The notes beneath the pieces were generated by a model, which worked only from the letters and a program-made list of their open reading frames with translations, was not told the origin of the DNA and searched no databases. From an uncultured Gemmatimonadales bacterium (lineage in GTDB: Bacteria; Gemmatimonadota; Gemmatimonadetes; Gemmatimonadales; GWC2-71-9), in assembly GCA_963850655.1 (NCBI GenBank), contig CAWKMI010000004.1:10026-74025 (forward strand): DNA of 64,000 nt, written 5' to 3'. Positions 21,028 through 27,930 of the stretch are shown here, one piece after another. Position numbers and translations under genes: made by a program. The stretch's first letter is position 1; each line of letters begins with the position of its first letter.

Positions 21028-23568
21028 GTGAGTGAACAAGACCCCATGGAATCGTCTCCGACGCGAGGCGCAGTTGAGCTGTCGCCCAATGCGATCACGG
21101 TGCTCGAGAAGCGCTACCTGCTCAAGGACGAGACAGGGGCGCCAGTCGAGAAACCTGCCGATCTCTATTGGCGCGTCGCCACCACCGTCGCGGCACCCGA
21201 TGCCCGGTACGGTGCGTCGCGCGGCGCGGTGGATGCGCTGGCCGAGGCGTTCTATGAGGTGATGGCGAAACGGTTGTTCATGCCGAACTCGCCGACGCTG
21301 ATGAACGCCGGCCGGCCGCTGGGCCAGCTCTCTGCCTGCTTCGTCCTCCCGGTCGATGACACGCTCTCCAATGGCCACAGCGGCATCTATGACACGCTGC
21401 GGGCCATGGCCCTGGTGCATCAGTCGGGCGGAGGCACGGGCTTCTCGTTCTCCCGCCTCCGGGCACGCAACGACATTGTCCGTTCGACGATGGGCGTCGC
21501 CTCGGGGCCGGTGTCGTTCATGTCGCTCTATGACTCCTCGACCGACGTGGTCAAGCAGGGTGGCACTCGACGCGGCGCCAACATGGGCATCCTCCGGGTC
21601 GACCACCCGGACATCCTCGATTTCATCGATTGCAAGAGCGATCTCACCAAGATCACCAACTTCAACATCTCGGTCGCCATCACCGATGCCTTCATGGCCG
21701 CGCTCGCGGCCGATGGCGAATACGATCTGGTTGACCCGCGCACCAAACTGGTGACCGGCCAGATGAAGGCCTCGGTGCTGTGGAAGAAGATCGTCCACGG
21801 GGCCTGGAAGACCGGCGAGCCTGGTGTCTTCTTCATCGACCGGGCCAATCACTTCAATCCGGTGCCAACGCTGGGCTCCTACGAGGCCACCAACCCCTGT
21901 GGCGAGCAGCCGCTGTTGCCATACGACGTCTGCAACCTCGGCTCGATCAACCTAGGCGCCTTCCTGACCGGAACAGACGAGATCGACTGGGATCACCTCC
22001 GGGAAGTCGTCCACCTCACGACCCATTTCCTCGAGAACGTGATCGATGCCAACCACTACCCGCTGCAGGAGATCAGTGATCTCGCGCAACGGATCCGCCG
22101 GATTGGCCTCGGCGTGATGGGGCTGGCCGACCTCTTTGTCCGGCTCGGGATTCCCTACGATTCGGACGAAGCAGTCGAATTGGGCCGCGAGCTGCAGCAG
22201 TTCGTCGATGACGAGGCCAAGAACGAGTCGGAGCGGCTGGCCACCCTGCGCGGGGTCTTCCCGGAGTGGGAGCGCAGTATTTGGGGTCCTGACGCCACTT
22301 GCGCCCGCGATGCGAAGGGCAATCGGATCCGGCCGATGCGGAAGCTGCGCCATTGCAACATGACTACGGTGGCGCCGACCGGGACCATCTCGATCATCAC
22401 CGGGTGCTCGTCAGGCATCGAACCGCTCTTCGCCGTGGCCTTCATGCGCAACCAGGCCGGCGTCCTGATGCCGGATGTCAACGAGGATTTCGTTGCCATC
22501 GCCAGGCGCGAAGGGTGGTACAGCGAAGCGCTGATCCGCCAGATCGCCGAGCGGGGCAGCATCCGGCTTTCGGAAGTGCCGGAGAAGTGGCAGCGTGTGT
22601 TCACCACCGCCAACGACATCGCGCCCGAATGGCACATCCGGATGCAGGCGGCGTTTCAGGAGCACAACGACTCGGCGATCTCCAAGACATGCAACTTCGC
22701 CAATGCTGCCAGCGAGGAGTACGTCGAGCAGATCTATCGCATGGCCTATGACCTCGGCTGCAAGGGCGTCACCGTTTACCGCGACGGCTCGCGCGACTTG
22801 CAGGTTCTCTCGACTGGTCTTCAGGCCAAGAAGGTGGCCGATCAGGCCGTCTCGACCGGATCGTCGGAGGCACGCGCCGATCTCGGCTATCAGTCGCCAG
22901 ACGCCGACCCGGATGAACGGCTGGCGATGGCGGACCTTGCATCAGAACTGGCCGAGGCGCACGCCGAGATCGAGCGCCTGCGGCAGTCGGTGCACGAGCT
23001 CGAGAGCGAAAATCTCCAGCGGCGCCAGAAGCGGTCACGGCCCGAATCGTTGCCGGGCACCGTGCGCCGCCTCTCCACGCCGCTCGGCGATCTCTACGTC
23101 ACCATCACCGAGGACGACAAAGGACAGCCGTTCGAGGTGTTCATGTCTCTCGGCAAGGCTGGTGGTGCGCTGATGGCCGATGTCGAGGCGATCGCGCGGC
23201 TGATCTCCCTTGCGCTGCGTTCTGGAATTCCTGCCAAGGCGGTGTATCGCCAGTTGCGAGGCATCTCGTCTGACCGGGCCATCGGGCTGGGACCGAACAA
23301 GGTGCTGTCGGTGCCTGATGCAGTGGGGATCGCGCTCGAGAAGTACATGTTCGAGAAGCAGGGGATTCAGCAGGAATTGCTCAACACCACAGCCGAGCAT
23401 CCTGCGGTACCGGCGCCTGCCGTGCTGGTGACCATGGAAAACGAACAAATGGCGCTCGGGGGAATGGCACACACCCTCACCGGGGCCTGTCCCGACTGCG
23501 GTTCGCAGCTCGAGTACGCCGAGGGCTGCATGAAGTGTCATGTGTGCGGCTTCTCGGAGTGCGGCTGA
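21028..23568 (+). CDS. nrdJ: Class II adenosylcobalamin-dependent ribonucleotide reductase with C-terminal TSCPD-like/zinc-ribbon domain
   Basis: PNSPTLMNAG, SACFV, QGGTRRGANM, TNPCGEQPL, VAPTGTIS, KGVTVYRDGSR, terminal CPDCG..EGCMKCHVCGFSECG. Confidence 0.95.
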   Translation: MSEQDPMESSPTRGAVELSPNAITVLEKRYLLKDETGAPVEKPADLYWRVATTVAAPDARYGASRGAVDALAEAFYEVMAKRLFMPNSPTLMNAGRPLGQLSACFVLPVDDTLSNGHSGIYDTLRAMALVHQSGGGTGFSFSRLRARNDIVRSTMGVASGPVSFMSLYDSSTDVVKQGGTRRGANMGILRVDHPDILDFIDCKSDLTKITNFNISVAITDAFMAALAADGEYDLVDPRTKLVTGQMKASVLWKKIVHGAWKTGEPGVFFIDRANHFNPVPTLGSYEATNPCGEQPLLPYDVCNLGSINLGAFLTGTDEIDWDHLREVVHLTTHFLENVIDANHYPLQEISDLAQRIRRIGLGVMGLADLFVRLGIPYDSDEAVELGRELQQFVDDEAKNESERLATLRGVFPEWERSIWGPDATCARDAKGNRIRPMRKLRHCNMTTVAPTGTISIITGCSSGIEPLFAVAFMRNQAGVLMPDVNEDFVAIARREGWYSEALIRQIAERGSIRLSEVPEKWQRVFTTANDIAPEWHIRMQAAFQEHNDSAISKTCNFANAASEEYVEQIYRMAYDLGCKGVTVYRDGSRDLQVLSTGLQAKKVADQAVSTGSSEARADLGYQSPDADPDERLAMADLASELAEAHAEIERLRQSVHELESENLQRRQKRSRPESLPGTVRRLSTPLGDLYVTITEDDKGQPFEVFMSLGKAGGALMADVEAIARLISLALRSGIPAKAVYRQLRGISSDRAIGLGPNKVLSVPDAVGIALEKYMFEKQGIQQELLNTTAEHPAVPAPAVLVTMENEQMALGGMAHTLTGACPDCGSQLEYAEGCMKCHVCGFSECG

Positions 23569-23597
23569 ACTAGGTTTTGCCCATCAGGGTCGTGCGG

Positions 23598-23625
23598 GCG
23601 GGGGCGACGCATGCGTCACCCCCGC
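23598..23625. repeat. REP-like palindrome
   Basis: GCGGGGGCGACGCATGCGTCACCCCCGC, related to the copy at 60543. Confidence 0.65.
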
Positions 23626-23718
23626 AGGTGCAGTCACCGGGGCTCCCGTCCCGGGCACGAAGGGGGATCTGGCCTCGCGGACGGACCCCCTTCGTTGCGC
23701 TGGTGAACGACCTTCCGC

Positions 23719-23747
23719 TTGACCTCGGCGTCCAATTGTGACAAAAT
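23719..23747 (+). promoter_or_regulatory. Sigma-70-like promoter giving a near-leaderless mRNA
   Basis: TTGACC-N17-CAAAAT, with ATG 9 bp downstream and no SD. Confidence 0.5.
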
Positions 23748-23756
23748 GGCTCCCAT

Positions 23757-24185
23757 ATGTTCCGGACTCATGTTTGGCTGCATCGAGCGCTGGCGATGCT
23801 GGCAGTGTTGGGCTTGTCGATCGCGCCCCTCGCGGCTGCCCTTCATGCCCAGGGGGGCGATGGCCCCGTCATGCCGATGGCGATGCCGATGCCAATGGCG
23901 ATGCCAATGGCGATGCCGATGGCGATGGACGCCCCCGGTCAGGGCGGCCACCATTCTTCCGGCCCGGACACCCACCACCCCTGTCCGGCGTCATGCTGCG
24001 ATCTCTGCTTCGGTGGTTGCAGCTGTGCTACGGTGCCGGTTGCGCCTGTGGTCTCGATCGCTGGCCTGAAGCCGGTTGACAACACCTCCATCGACACCGC
24101 GCCTGAGCCACACCTCCTCCCGAGCCGAATTGCACCTCACGCCGCACCCTTCGCCCTCCCGCCGCCGGGCCCCGCCTCCGCCTGA
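23757..24185 (+). CDS. Met/His/Cys-rich leader protein (DUF2946/CutF/CruR-like)
   Basis: Signal/TM N-terminus, Met-X repeat with 10 Met, HH..HHPCPASCCDLCFGGCSC, C-terminal PFALPPP. Directly upstream of a TonB-dependent receptor. Confidence 0.75.
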   Translation: MFRTHVWLHRALAMLAVLGLSIAPLAAALHAQGGDGPVMPMAMPMPMAMPMAMPMAMDAPGQGGHHSSGPDTHHPCPASCCDLCFGGCSCATVPVAPVVSIAGLKPVDNTSIDTAPEPHLLPSRIAPHAAPFALPPPGPASA

Positions 24186-24253
24186 TCTCGCTGCGACCAT
24201 GTGTCGTGGCGATTCCTTGCCCGGCCCACGGTCCTGCGTTCACGGAGGCGGTT

Positions 24254-26266
24254 GTGTGCTCACGTCACTGGTTAGTTGTGGTCTTTCTGGCCCCCGTTGC
24301 ACTGGTGGCCCAGCAAACGACGCCGTCCCGACTCGATGCGCGACCCAGGGTGACACTCTGACGCATCGTGCCCCTCTCAAGCTCGAGGCGATCACGGTGC
24401 AGGCATCGCCGACCCCGGTCGACGTTCCTGTGAGTGTCATCCGGATCACGCCGCGAGTGATCAGCACCACTCCCGCCAACGGCCCCTGGGACCTGCTGCG
24501 GCTGACCGCCGGGGTGGAGATTCATGACCAGGGACAGGGACCGGGGTTCGCTTCCGATGCTTCGATCCGCGGCTTTTCGTCGGATCACTCGACCGACCTG
24601 GCACTCTGGATCGATGGGGTTCCCGTCAACGAGCCGGTGAACGGCCATGCCGAGGGGTACAACGACTGGAGCCTGCTGATGCCGTCGGTGATCAGCGACA
24701 TGGAAGTGATCGAGGGTCCGACCAGCGCGCTGTACGGCAACTTTGCCATGGCCGGGGTCGTCACGGTCCGGACGCGCGAGCGGATGACGGGTTCGCAGTT
24801 CTCACTGGACGGCGGCACCAATGGGCGGGTCGACGGCACGCTTTCTTACCGGTCTCGATCGCGAAGGGCTCGGCCTGGTGGTCGGAATCCGCGGCATGCG
24901 CGACGGCGGCTGGCGTCCGAACAGCGAACAGCACCTGGGCCAGTTCTACGGCCGCTTGGTCCGACAACTCTCCGGTAGCGCCACCCTCGACATTGGCACA
25001 CAACTCTACAGCGCCGGCTGGGACTCTCCCGGCTTCATCACCAGCGCTGCGTTTGCTGCCGGAGAGTTTGACCATGTCTCCGATGTGACCGATGGTGGCT
25101 TCAAGCGGCATGCGCTGGAGCGAGCCTCGCTCCGGGTGGTGGCGGTGGCTCGACCCTCTGGCGCACTACGCTGTACGCCACGCAAGGCAACTGGAACTTC
25201 TTCCTGACGATCCCGCCCGAGCCGGGTGAGGGAGAGGGAAGCGGCAGCCAGACACAGGAGATCGATCACCGCTCCGGTTGGGGGGCCACCAGCGCGCTGT
25301 CGTGGGCCAGCACCCGCACCGAACTTACCGTCGGCGGCCAGGGACGTCTCGACAACAGCGACTTCTCCCGCTGGTACACGACGACCCGCACGCAAGACTC
25401 CTCCGACGCCCTGCTGCAAGCCCGCCAGGCATCGGGAGCGATCTTCCTGCAGTCGAGCGCCGACGTCGGTCATCACGTCCGCTTCACGCTCGGGGGGCGC
25501 TATGATCTCCTCGACACGCGTTCGAGTCCTGATGGCGAAGCCATCCACGTCAGCCGCGAACGGGATCTTCTCGCCCAAGGCGGGCGTGCTGCTGCATCTC
25601 CGGCGCGTCGGCGCGCTCTATGCCAACGTGTCGCGGGGTTTCCGAAGCACCGATGGTGTCATCGACAATCCGACGCTGCCGTTCATCACCGAGTGGGCCT
25701 ACGAATCCGGGCTGCAGGTGGGGGTGCGGCGGCTGAATGGCACGGTTGCGCTCTTCCGGACCGATGTCAGCAACGAACAGAGCTTCGATCCGATTCACCT
25801 CACCAGCACCACTGCCGGCCGCTCGCGGCGCCAGGGAGTGCAATTCTCGCTGGTTGGCCGGGTAAGCGACGCGGCTCGCCTGAGCGGCAGCTGGACATTC
25901 ACGGACGCCAAGTATCTGGAAGCCACCACCCCGGATGGCGACACTCTCGATGGGACTTCGGTGCCCAATACTGCCAGGTATGTTGGCTCGGCGTCGCTCG
26001 AGCTCGGTCCTTCCACGGCGCCCTGGTTCGTCCGCATCAGCACGAATGTCGTCGGGCCATACACCCCGTTCGATGAGCCTGGAGTCGAGTTGCCGGCCTA
26101 CGGACTGTTGCACCTGTCGGGACGGTACCAGATGAACTCGACCACCGCAGTGCGCCTCGGCGTTCGCAACCTCCTCGATCACTCCTATCCGGAACTCCGG
26201 GCCGGCGGCTTCGTGTCACCGGGTCAGGGGCGGGCGATCTATGCCGGATTGAGCTACCAGCGCTAG
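24254..26266 (+). CDS. TonB-dependent outer membrane receptor (frameshifted)
   Basis: RBS GGAGG then GTG and a signal peptide. TonB box LEAITVQA, plug IRGF..IDGVPVN..IEGPTSALYGNFAMAGVV, C-terminal LGVRNLLD..Y..GRAIYAGLSY. Confidence 0.9.
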
Positions 26267-26422: not shown

Positions 26423-26683
26423 ATGGCTGATGCCCCGCTCGCCCCGATTCCGCCCGCTCGCGCCGCCCAGGAACTGACCAAGCTGTCCGCCATGCGGAAG
26501 AGCGGTGAACTGGCCCAGGACGAGTACGAGCACAAGTTTTCGCGCATGGTCAGCGAGCTGCGCGATCGCCGCATCGGCGGCACCCGTGCGGAGATCATGG
26601 CAGCGCTCGAGCCGCTGCGTCTCAATGGCGTGATCACCGCTGCGGAATGGGATCGTTTCATCTCCCAGCTCGGACTCGGCTGA
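26423..26683 (+). CDS. Small helical protein with two SHOCT-like motifs
   Basis: LTKLSAMRKSGELAQDEYE and LEPLRLNGVITAAEWD. RBS GAGGAG, TATATT upstream. Confidence 0.7.
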   Translation: MADAPLAPIPPARAAQELTKLSAMRKSGELAQDEYEHKFSRMVSELRDRRIGGTRAEIMAALEPLRLNGVITAAEWDRFISQLGLG

Positions 26684-26696
26684 CCAAGAGCTTCCG

Positions 26697-27930
26697 ATGG
26701 CCGCCGTGACTCGGCGTTCCACCCCCACCGTCCGGATTGGTGGCGTGGCGGTGGGGTCGGCACATCCGGTGGTGGTCCAGTCGATGACCAACACCGACAC
26801 CGCCGACGTCACCGCCACCGTGCGCCAGGTGGCGGAGCTGGCGCGCGCCGGCAGCGAGCTGGTGCGCGTCACCGTCAACAACGACGCGGCCGCGGCCGCT
26901 GTCCCCGAGATCGTTGCCGGACTCGATCGGATCGGCATCACGGTGCCGATCATCGGTGATTTCCACTACAACGGCCACCGCTCTGCTCACGCGCTTCCCC
27001 GAGTGCGCCCGGGCGCTTGCCAAGTACCGCATCAATCCCGGCAACGTCGGCGGCAAGCGGCACGACGAGCACTTCCGCGCCATCGTCGAGGTCGCGATCG
27101 CCAACGACAAGCCGGTGCGCATCGGCGTCAACTGGGGCTCGCTCGACCAGGCGCTGCTCACCGAGATGATGGACGGCCAACGCCGCAGCTGGCCGTCCCG
27201 CGTGCGGCGCGGGACGTGATGCTTGATGCGATGATCGCCTCGGCGCTGCGCTCAGCAGCCGCGGCCGAATCGATCGGACTGGCGCACGACCGCATCGTGC
27301 TCAGCGCCAAGGTCTCCAATGTGCAGGACCTCGTCGACGTCTACCGGCTGCTCGCCGCGCGGTGCGACTTCCCCCTGCACGTCGGGCTCACCGAGGCCGG
27401 GATGGCGATGAAGGGCATGGTGGCCAGTGCTGCCGGGCTCGCGATCCTCCTGCAGGAGCGGCATCGGCGACACCATCCGGGTGTCGCTCACCCCGGAGCC
27501 GGATGGGGATCGCACCGAGGAAGTCCGCGTCGCCCAGCAGGTCCTCCAATCGCTCGGCCTGCGGCATTTCACCCCCCAGGTCACCTCCTGCCCGGGTTGC
27601 GGCCGGACCACCAGCACCTTCTTCCAGTCGATGGCGGAGGAGATCGAGGGCTATCTCCGCCGTCAGATGCCGGTCTGGGCTGGGAGGTACCCGGGGGTCG
27701 CGGAGCTGAAGGTGGCCGTCATGGGCTGCGTGGTGAACGGGCCGGGGGAATCGAAGCACGCCAATATCGGGATTTCGCTCCCGGGAACCTTCGAGGAGCC
27801 GGTCGCCCCGGTCTTCATCGATGGTTGTCTGGCCACTACACTCCGCGGCGATAATATTGTGGCGGAATTCCTCCACCTCCTGGAGGCCTATGTCGAAGGC
27901 CGTTATGGGGTTGGTCCGGACCCGGCATAG
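26697..27930 (+). CDS. ispG: (E)-4-hydroxy-3-methylbut-2-enyl diphosphate synthase (frameshifted)
   Basis: [66 protein letters not shown]. Confidence 0.95.

Follow-up and report, generated by a model that had tools for sequence, protein, structure and literature searches.

A putative DUF2946-type regulatory leader upstream of a TonB-dependent receptor gene in Gemmatimonadota

We analysed a stretch of 64,000 nucleotides (nt) from an uncultured Gemmatimonadales bacterium (contig CAWKMI010000004.1; hereafter the window), in which a small open reading frame (ORF) of 142 amino acids (aa), here called the leader, precedes a gene for a TonB-dependent receptor. The source is a Gemmatimonadota metagenome-assembled genome of 25 contigs with a G+C content of 66.5% (C 0.331, G 0.334 genome-wide) and a marker-gene completeness of 61%. 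A first-pass annotation of the DNA had read the ORF as a probable metal-sensing, ribosome-stalling leader that controls the receptor through a built-in complement of the receptor's Shine-Dalgarno sequence (SD). The parts on which that reading was built, namely the 142-aa ORF, a signal-like N-terminus, a Met repeat, a His/Cys cluster and the ending PFALPPP, were all found where it had placed them. The exact 9-bp complement between anti-SD and SD, four nt after the PPP codons, was confirmed as well, and its anti-SD arm lies inside the ORF. The features are the following.

23757..24185, + strand: leader ORF, 142 aa, diverged DUF2946/CruR-CutF-like (from translation, profile searches and alignments)
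23757..23849, + strand: signal-peptide-like N-terminus, residues 1-31, MFRTHVWLHRALAMLAVLGLSIAPLAAALHA/QGG (read from the translation)
23871..23927, + strand: Met-rich repeat MPMAMPMPMAMPMAMPMAM, residues 39-57 (direct-repeat families D1-D5)
23973..24026, + strand: His/Cys cluster HHPCPASCCDLCFGGCSC, residues 73-90, with the core C80-C81-D82-x-C84 and CxxC at 23997-24008
24147..24167, + strand: C-terminal PFALPPP, residues 131-137, with PPP codons 24159-24167 and conserved P131, P136 and P137
24172..24185, + strand: 5' arm of a predicted helix, made of the anti-SD CCGCCTCCG (24172-24180) and the leader stop codon TGA (24183-24185), which pairs with TCA (24240-24242)
24240..24256, + strand: 3' arm of that helix, made of TCA and CGGAGGCGG (24243-24251), which holds the SD, followed by the receptor start GTG (24254-24256)
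24254..26266, + strand: TonB-dependent receptor gene with Plug and beta-barrel domains (from domain matches), in alternating frames in this assembly

By inspection, the N-terminus of the leader has a basic n-region, a hydrophobic core of about 19 residues and ALHA before Q. H30, A31 and Q32 are invariant in an alignment of four sequences, and a hydrophobic stretch with a ..HA(Q) end is common to many of the aligned relatives. The leader ends in PFALPPPGPASA. Because it aligned with its relatives from the first to the last residue, we regard the ORF as intact. The SD of the receptor, GGAGG (24244-24248), lies 5 nt upstream of the GTG, at which a signal-peptide-like frame, MCSRHWLVVVFLAPVALVAQQ, begins.

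A word-indexed protein search found one relative of the leader, and a scan of the genome contigs with a back-translated pattern returned only two loci, both already known. With a profile built from four sequences, we obtained 34 small proteins from 1.84 billion protein representatives and matches in 22 of 401 Gemmatimonadota genomes. Fifteen of the 22 profile loci were accepted and, together with the loci L004 and L002 and the window, form a set of 18 loci. Excluded before all counts were L022 and L024-L026, which matched over the signal-peptide part only and lack the Cys and PP motifs, and L027, which matched in an unrelated frame; the weak matches L003 and L005 were left out of all counts.

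In an alignment of 35 sequences, C80 is invariant and C81, D82, C84, P131, P136 and P137 are at least 90% conserved, at a mean column identity of 21%. All 47 sequences that were scored for motifs carry [A/G/P]PP 2-5 residues from the C-terminal end. The distance from CxxC (C81-D-L-C84 in the window) to the residue before this motif is 46-50 in each of the 47 (47 in 22 sequences, 46 in 11, 49 in seven, 48 in five and 50 in two), and the 49 of the window falls outside the DUF2946 value of 45 (within 1-2). The spacing is tightly kept in the clade, and shifted relative to the canonical 45. Where the RAPP motif of known leaders has Arg, the clade has Leu (22 sequences, including Leu134 of the window), Gln (nine), Ile (six), Val (four), His (three), Asn (two) or Arg (one). 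Where RAPP has Ala, we found Ala and Gly in 19 sequences each and Pro in nine, followed by PP in 47 of 47. The PPP that had been taken as the key element was therefore replaced by [A/G/P]PP as the conserved form, with Pro at its first position in those nine only. Nor does the Met array, proposed as the mark of a variant, extend to the clade: the segment holds 10 Met in the window leader, 0-5 in most relatives and 6-8 in a few, and is a property of few members.

The window leader matches the Pfam model of DUF2946 (PF11162) over profile positions 2-110 of 117, with 12 bits and E 0.36. Among the 35 aligned sequences, the window included, 31 match at E<=1 and five at E<=1e-4, the best at E 2e-8. 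We also compared the clade by hhalign with 17 proteins chosen for their RAPP-type C-termini from 22 DUF2946 loci of Gemmatimonadota and a further locus, L029. In global mode the two groups were colinear over 119 columns (P 9e-6, probability 64%): the signal peptides coincide, as do the CxxC motifs, and [AG]PP falls on the APP of RAPP. Local mode aligned only 18 columns around CxxC. The query omitted L019, L021, L023, P0011 and P0030, which have no scorable CC..C or PP motif, and the duplicates L011 and L012. We read these similarities as those of a diverged sister group at the fringe of DUF2946, with the window leader connected to the family only via intermediates.

An orthologous receptor lies downstream of the leader in 15 of the 18 loci (tblastn), and within 43-188 nt of it in 13. 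One locus has its receptor match 1.3 kb away and two have none; in L002, the contig ends right after the apparent receptor start. In a genome with an intact copy of the receptor the next gene is convergent, indicating that the unit consists of leader and receptor. In genome G008, of the same genus, a CopC-domain gene (E 1.3e-17; L011, 2011-2370, + strand) lies between the leader and the orthologous receptor, which is 80% identical to the receptor of G002, and this gene links the unit to copper. As in DUF2946-type operons, the leader is the first gene and a TonB-dependent receptor or CopC gene follows; a promoter-like site lies directly upstream of the leader. The kinship with DUF2946 leaders that the first-pass annotation had named thus stands on CxxC, on a C-terminal PP at a fixed distance and on the receptor downstream, all recurring across Gemmatimonadota. 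In the search with the family model it stood in part: the model was covered nearly in full and the five aligned sequences matched strongly, but the window itself remained below threshold.

In Bordetella pertussis, the DUF2946 upstream ORF CruR (Bp2923) has the TonB-dependent copper transporter BfrG/CrtA under its control (PMC9426467; PMC12914433). As described in PMC9426467, its CXXC and RAPP motifs are 45 residues apart, stalling in the absence of copper blocks Rho so that the transporter is expressed, and copper relieves the stall; that study also stresses an unstructured stretch. The window locus resembles CruR in the small, probably exported protein heading a TonB-dependent receptor operon, the CxxC, the xAPP-type motif near the stop codon, the conserved distance between the motifs and the C-rich 3' end. 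The controlled gene is again an uptake gene, so the same logic would be expected. In contrast to CruR, the clade has the motif [L/Q/I/V][A/G/P]PP without Arg, the inter-motif spacing is 46-50 (49 in the window) instead of 45, the spacer between leader and receptor is 68 nt instead of 162 nt, the SD is predicted to be strongly sequestered, a PepSY_TM gene is missing downstream, and the phylum is Gemmatimonadota.

In Rhodobacter capsulatus, the DUF2946 leader CutF of cutFOG ends in PPP, and an anti-SD in the last codons of cutF shields the SD of cutO in a stem-loop that is melted by copper-induced stalling, as described in two preprints (bioRxiv 10.1101/2022.11.11.516240; 10.1101/2025.02.05.636593). 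Likenesses to CutF are the Sec signal peptide (in the window an N-terminus that is signal-peptide-like by inspection), the Cys motif, the C-terminal PPP, the short spacer and an anti-SD stem-loop at the very end of the leader over the SD of the next gene; for CutF, too, melting by the stalled ribosome is a proposal. Since this leader-end stem-loop has already been described for cutF-cutO, the anti-SD element is not new. Unlike the window receptor, the target of CutF is a detoxifying multicopper oxidase, copper induces stalling there, and the motif is CxxxC. As the target here is an uptake receptor, we would expect the opposite sign.

Small ORFs with RAPP or RGPP upstream of TonB-dependent receptors are reported from across Gram-negative phyla in a 2025 survey (PMC12992588). 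Like the RAPP/RGPP peptides (ApdA, ApdP, SecM-like; PMC12992588, PMC10987492), the clade members have an xxPP core near the C-terminus of a small, probably secreted protein with a putatively regulated gene downstream; unlike them, they have Arg two residues before Pro-Pro in a single case. In the toeprint of CruR, the third and fourth RAPP residues occupy the P- and A-sites (PMC12992588), and by analogy codon 136 (24162-24164) in the P-site is our candidate pause site. The string 'Gemmatimonad' does not occur in the main texts of PMC9426467, 10.1101/2022.11.11.516240 and PMC12992588, and the clade may be contained in their supplementary tables.

The anti-SD CCGCCTCCG is a perfect 9-nt reverse complement of CGGAGGCGG and falls within the last four sense codons of the leader (P-A-S-A). 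Folding of 24140-24270 by RNAfold yielded the helix in the minimum free energy (MFE) structure (-54.8 kcal/mol, z -2.61, 1 of 200 shuffles as good), in which both 9-mers and UGA:UCA are paired across the spacer, and the SD of the receptor is predicted to be held at the leader end as the first-pass annotation had anticipated. An anti-SD at the leader end with a spacer of less than 100 nt, as in the SD-shielding stem-loop of CutF, is therefore present in silico. We compared the window with 512 candidates of its own genome, defined by GGAGG, a start codon and at least 100 codons. Only two of them, the window included, have a perfect SD complement of at least 9 nt located 12-110 nt upstream. In the other one, a run of 11 nt no more than 110 nt upstream is perfectly complementary to the SD region. 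The predicted cost of opening the SD was 13.7 kcal/mol in the window, equal to the maximum among 200 sampled candidates (mean 4.9, standard deviation 2.45, 95th percentile 9.5), the sample being drawn from the set that includes the window locus.

The effect of a ribosome on the helix was modelled by blocking the mRNA, for a ribosome at PP as far as +15 from the first conserved Pro codon. For the window, the opening cost fell from 13.7 kcal/mol for the free mRNA to 8.9 when the ribosome was set at PP and to 4.0 when it was set at the stop codon. The corresponding means of 14 loci were 8.3, 4.85 and 4.6; in 13 of the 14, a ribosome at PP made the SD cheaper to open than in the free mRNA. The earlier idea that a ribosome paused at PPP masks the anti-SD agrees with this drop, but a ribosome with its P-site on the first conserved Pro codon would extend only to about 24177 and mask the 24172-24180 arm in part. 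Duplexes of leader end and SD were more stable for cognate (-18.5) than for non-cognate pairs (-15.5 kcal/mol; permutation p 5e-5), and a control with the leader end (the 5' segment) reversed gave p 0.17. Across genera the difference was -18.8 vs -14.5, and none of 20,000 permutations reached the observed mean. In 11 of 14 loci, the nucleotides that pair with the SD are located +1 to +18 nt from the first conserved Pro codon. According to these models, the SD helix is real as thermodynamics and is plausibly used in control.

Upstream of the leader, we found one further feature.

23719..23747, + strand: promoter-like TTGACC-17 nt-CAAAAT with TG before the second hexamer, ending 9 nt upstream of the ATG

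It is the sole match in 1 kb (shuffles mean 0.0). Using a rule that accepts a score of at least 7 of 12, a spacer of 16-18 and an end 5-11 nt before an in-frame start, comparable sites at leaderless distance occurred in 7 of the 18 loci, including all six of the genus (shuffles 0.9%); these seven have a spacer of 17 nt and a gap of 7-9 nt to the ATG. This arrangement implies an mRNA that is probably leaderless or near-leaderless, and the near-leaderless start assumed in the first-pass annotation is reasonable because the promoter-like site ends so close to the ATG. A look-up of sequencing runs for 23600-24600 returned none, which speaks neither for nor against this reading.

We favour, at slightly better than even confidence, the explanation that the 142-aa ORF acts as a CruR/CutF-type (DUF2946) regulatory leader and controls the downstream TonB-dependent receptor by ribosome pausing. 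The leader would probably be translated from a leaderless mRNA, and its nascent chain exported by means of the signal peptide. This chain would carry a metal site formed by the His-rich stretch and CCDLC, here joined by a Met-rich repeat of Cu(I) type, at a fixed distance of about 50 residues before an [A/G/P]-Pro-Pro pause site that is five codons from the stop. Without a ribosome on it, the mRNA would keep the receptor SD locked in the helix formed with the final codons of the leader and its stop codon. A ribosome lingering at Pro-Pro, and still more at the stop codon, would open the helix and allow translation of the receptor, and the same ribosome would shield a C-rich stretch that could otherwise load Rho. 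Metal on the nascent chain would alter the length of the pause. We infer that the metal is most likely copper, given an uptake receptor as target and the CopC gene in the unit of one relative; copper would most likely shorten the pause and shut uptake off, as in CruR, since the controlled gene is an uptake receptor. As to the shares of translation and Rho in such control, we argue for a CutF-type switch as the main device because the spacer is short and structured, and both can act together. The locus joins the target of CruR with the RNA device of CutF in a clade that lost the Arg.

Several observations weigh against this explanation. In the window, 500 synonymous recodings of the last 15 codons paired with the SD region at least as well as the natural codons (real -21.3, mean -22.2, p 0.65), and recoding over the 14 loci gave a weak signal (Fisher p 0.086, z<0 in 11 of 14). 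Selection on the RNA beyond its codon content is therefore unproven at this locus: a Pro/Ala/Ser-rich tail in a genome of 66.5% G+C supplies an anti-SD almost for free. The test is conservative, however, as the variable tail after PP is free to evolve toward the SD. In 13 of 14 loci the SD is paired with the last 48 nt of the leader; we rejected this count as a measure of conservation because swapped and shuffled controls pair likewise in 88% and 78% of trials. For loci of the same genus, no difference was seen between cognate and non-cognate duplexes (-18.6 vs -18.0). In L002, the nearest genomic relative, the predicted partner of the SD is the spacer and not the leader end, and in the window a ribosome at PP leaves the SD costly to open, at the 8.9 kcal/mol given above.

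Objections also come from the proteins. At first reading, LPPP in place of RAPP had correctly been singled out in the window, and the lack of Arg extends to nearly the whole clade, at 46 of 47 sequences. In the systems covered by PMC12992588, this Arg is essential, and AAPP and AGPP serve as arrest-defective controls. The window leader stays under the Pfam gathering score (12 vs 23.7 bits). Against NCBIfam, the receptor found generic models only, the best being TIGR01783, below its cut-off, and no copper-specific match; an OprC-type model was absent among the 25 families listed of 28. Finally, the receptor is several times out of frame in this assembly.

When the intact 667-aa orthologue of G002, a genome of the same genus, was compared with the window by tblastn, it matched in three overlapping pieces that cover residues 32-665 in two alternating frames. 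The rho gene of the window genome is likewise in three pieces (G000:C3:54385-55625) and whole in four relatives. The gene at 26697-27930 is also broken, as read from the ORF list. Indel errors of the assembly are the likeliest cause of the split reading frames of receptor and rho, and a real pseudogene is the less probable alternative for the receptor. The broken genes point to indel errors throughout the assembly, which would also explain the completeness of 61%.

The alternative that survives best, although we consider it unlikely, is control of the CruR type only. The paused ribosome would guard a C-rich site for loading of Rho, relief of the pause would lead to Rho-dependent termination before the receptor, and the SD helix would be incidental. 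The following feature bears on it.

24033..24253, + strand: C-rich, G-poor stretch made of the last 150 nt of the leader and the spacer (C 0.42, G 0.27)

C exceeds G in this region in 14 of 14 loci (C 0.36-0.45, G 0.21-0.33), and Rho, present in the genus, scored above the cut-off in 4 of 4 relatives searched, with the pieces described above in the window genome; a CruR-type C>G bubble and Rho in the organism are thus both found. CruR, the sole leader/TonB-transporter pair studied, works in this way as described in PMC9426467. However, the long unstructured spacer of CruR (162 nt in B. pertussis) has no counterpart here. The spacer measures 68 nt in the window and between 43 and 71 nt in 12 of 14 loci. 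Folding predicts strong structure for the region (z -2.61), whereas the CruR study stresses an unstructured stretch, and the SD is exceptionally sequestered; yet the two mechanisms are compatible.

Rather improbable, in our judgement, is an alternative without regulated arrest, in which the leader product is a secreted, Met/His/Cys-rich metal-binding partner of the receptor in the periplasm and the two genes are merely coupled in translation, so that any finishing ribosome opens the SD. The mature part of the leader is indeed rich in metal ligands, the Arg needed for RAPP/RGPP arrest (PMC12992588) is missing, and the SD of the window opens better with a ribosome at the stop codon than at PP (4.0 vs 8.9 kcal/mol). 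But apart from CCDxC and the LPF..[AG]PP end, that mature part is poorly conserved, as the mean column identity indicates, and the clade is homologous to leaders that were shown to act as nascent chains. Least probable, to the point that we give it little credence, is that the anti-SD/SD complementarity is a role-less by-product of Pro/Ala/Ser codons in a G+C-rich genome, with control, if any, exerted elsewhere such as at the promoter: the recoding test in the window and the swapped and shuffled controls favour it, but the cognate specificity across genera, the rarity of such complements (2 of 512), an opening cost equal to the maximum of 200 sampled candidates and the conservative nature of the recoding test, with a post-PP tail that can evolve to fit the SD, all speak against it.

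Within the favoured explanation of a pausing leader, we tentatively propose, as a possibility that we would not yet back, an Arg-independent arrest module, H-x-L-P-F-[S/A]-x-[A/G/P]-P-P, located 2-5 residues ahead of the stop codon, which would pause Gemmatimonadota ribosomes in a metal-dependent manner. Together with a leaderless start and the SD helix, it would set the translation of a copper-uptake receptor, and the same genomes would use canonical RAPP leaders for efflux genes and other receptors. If this holds, one organism would have two mechanistically different nascent-chain sensors in opposite arms of metal homeostasis.

Only two cases of metal sensing by nascent DUF2946 leaders have been worked out, both in Proteobacteria, and they differ in sign and mechanism. 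The clade described here keeps the architecture, with a probable export signal, a Cys motif at a fixed distance from a Pro-Pro close to the stop, and a receptor gene downstream, without the Arg published as essential for RAPP/RGPP arrest. Should its members pause ribosomes, the sequence rules for arrest peptides would be wider, and a CutF-type RNA switch would act on an uptake gene; should they not, the conserved spacing requires another explanation. The clade also provides an annotation rule for unannotated small ORFs that precede receptors of one Gemmatimonadota family, and suggests that these receptors import copper.

A second small ORF of the window genome (contig C17 of G000, L029, 1489-1902, - strand) encodes 137 aa, in which 44 residues separate CPAC from a canonical C-terminal RSRAPP. 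A gene for an outer-membrane efflux protein (68-1450, - strand; OEP, E 1.8e-51) follows 38 nt downstream, and judging from these sequences the ORF resembles a RAPP-type leader of an efflux system, which the genome would have in addition to the Arg-less leader of the uptake receptor. DUF2946 scored over the cut-off in 9 of 301 Gemmatimonadota genomes searched (loci L034-L054), and 17 proteins have both CxxC and RAPP. Eleven genes downstream of RAPP-type leaders, that of L029 included, were assigned by Pfam: three to OEP efflux proteins, six to CarboxypepD_reg and two to no family. Two of the six CarboxypepD_reg genes also have a Plug domain and are probably TonB-dependent receptors of another class.

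The spacer contains a possible hairpin nested inside the larger SD-sequestering helix.

24190..24210, + strand: possible hairpin GCUGCGAC-CAUGU-GUCGUGGC, 8 pairs, 2 of them G-U, read by eye as an alternative to the inner pairing of the MFE structure

A homologous hairpin is present in the MFE structure of the closest locus, L002. In the genus, a G+C-rich hairpin follows the leader stop codon by 4-10 nt in the window, L002, L004, L008, L009, L010 and L011. Its sequence varies among loci (e.g. CCGGC..GCCGG), and in several of them a CAUUC/CAAUC-like stretch comes next. The hairpin is a candidate for a pause hairpin or a stabiliser. A scan of 23500-24400 against Rfam found no known RNA family that explains the spacer; a match to malK-III was rejected, as it lies on the opposite strand and upstream of the ORF and scores 19.9 bits against a threshold of 50.

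Two minor features flank the unit. Downstream of the receptor, a small ORF of 86 aa (26423-26683, + strand) has a weak match to the SHOCT domain (21.5 bits vs a cut-off of 27). Upstream, between the stop codon of an 846-aa gene (23568) and the promoter-like site of the leader, a perfect 10-bp inverted repeat, ACGAAGGGGG / CCCCCTTCGT, with a 19-nt loop occupies 23657-23695; no T-run follows it, and it may be a terminator or a protein-binding site.

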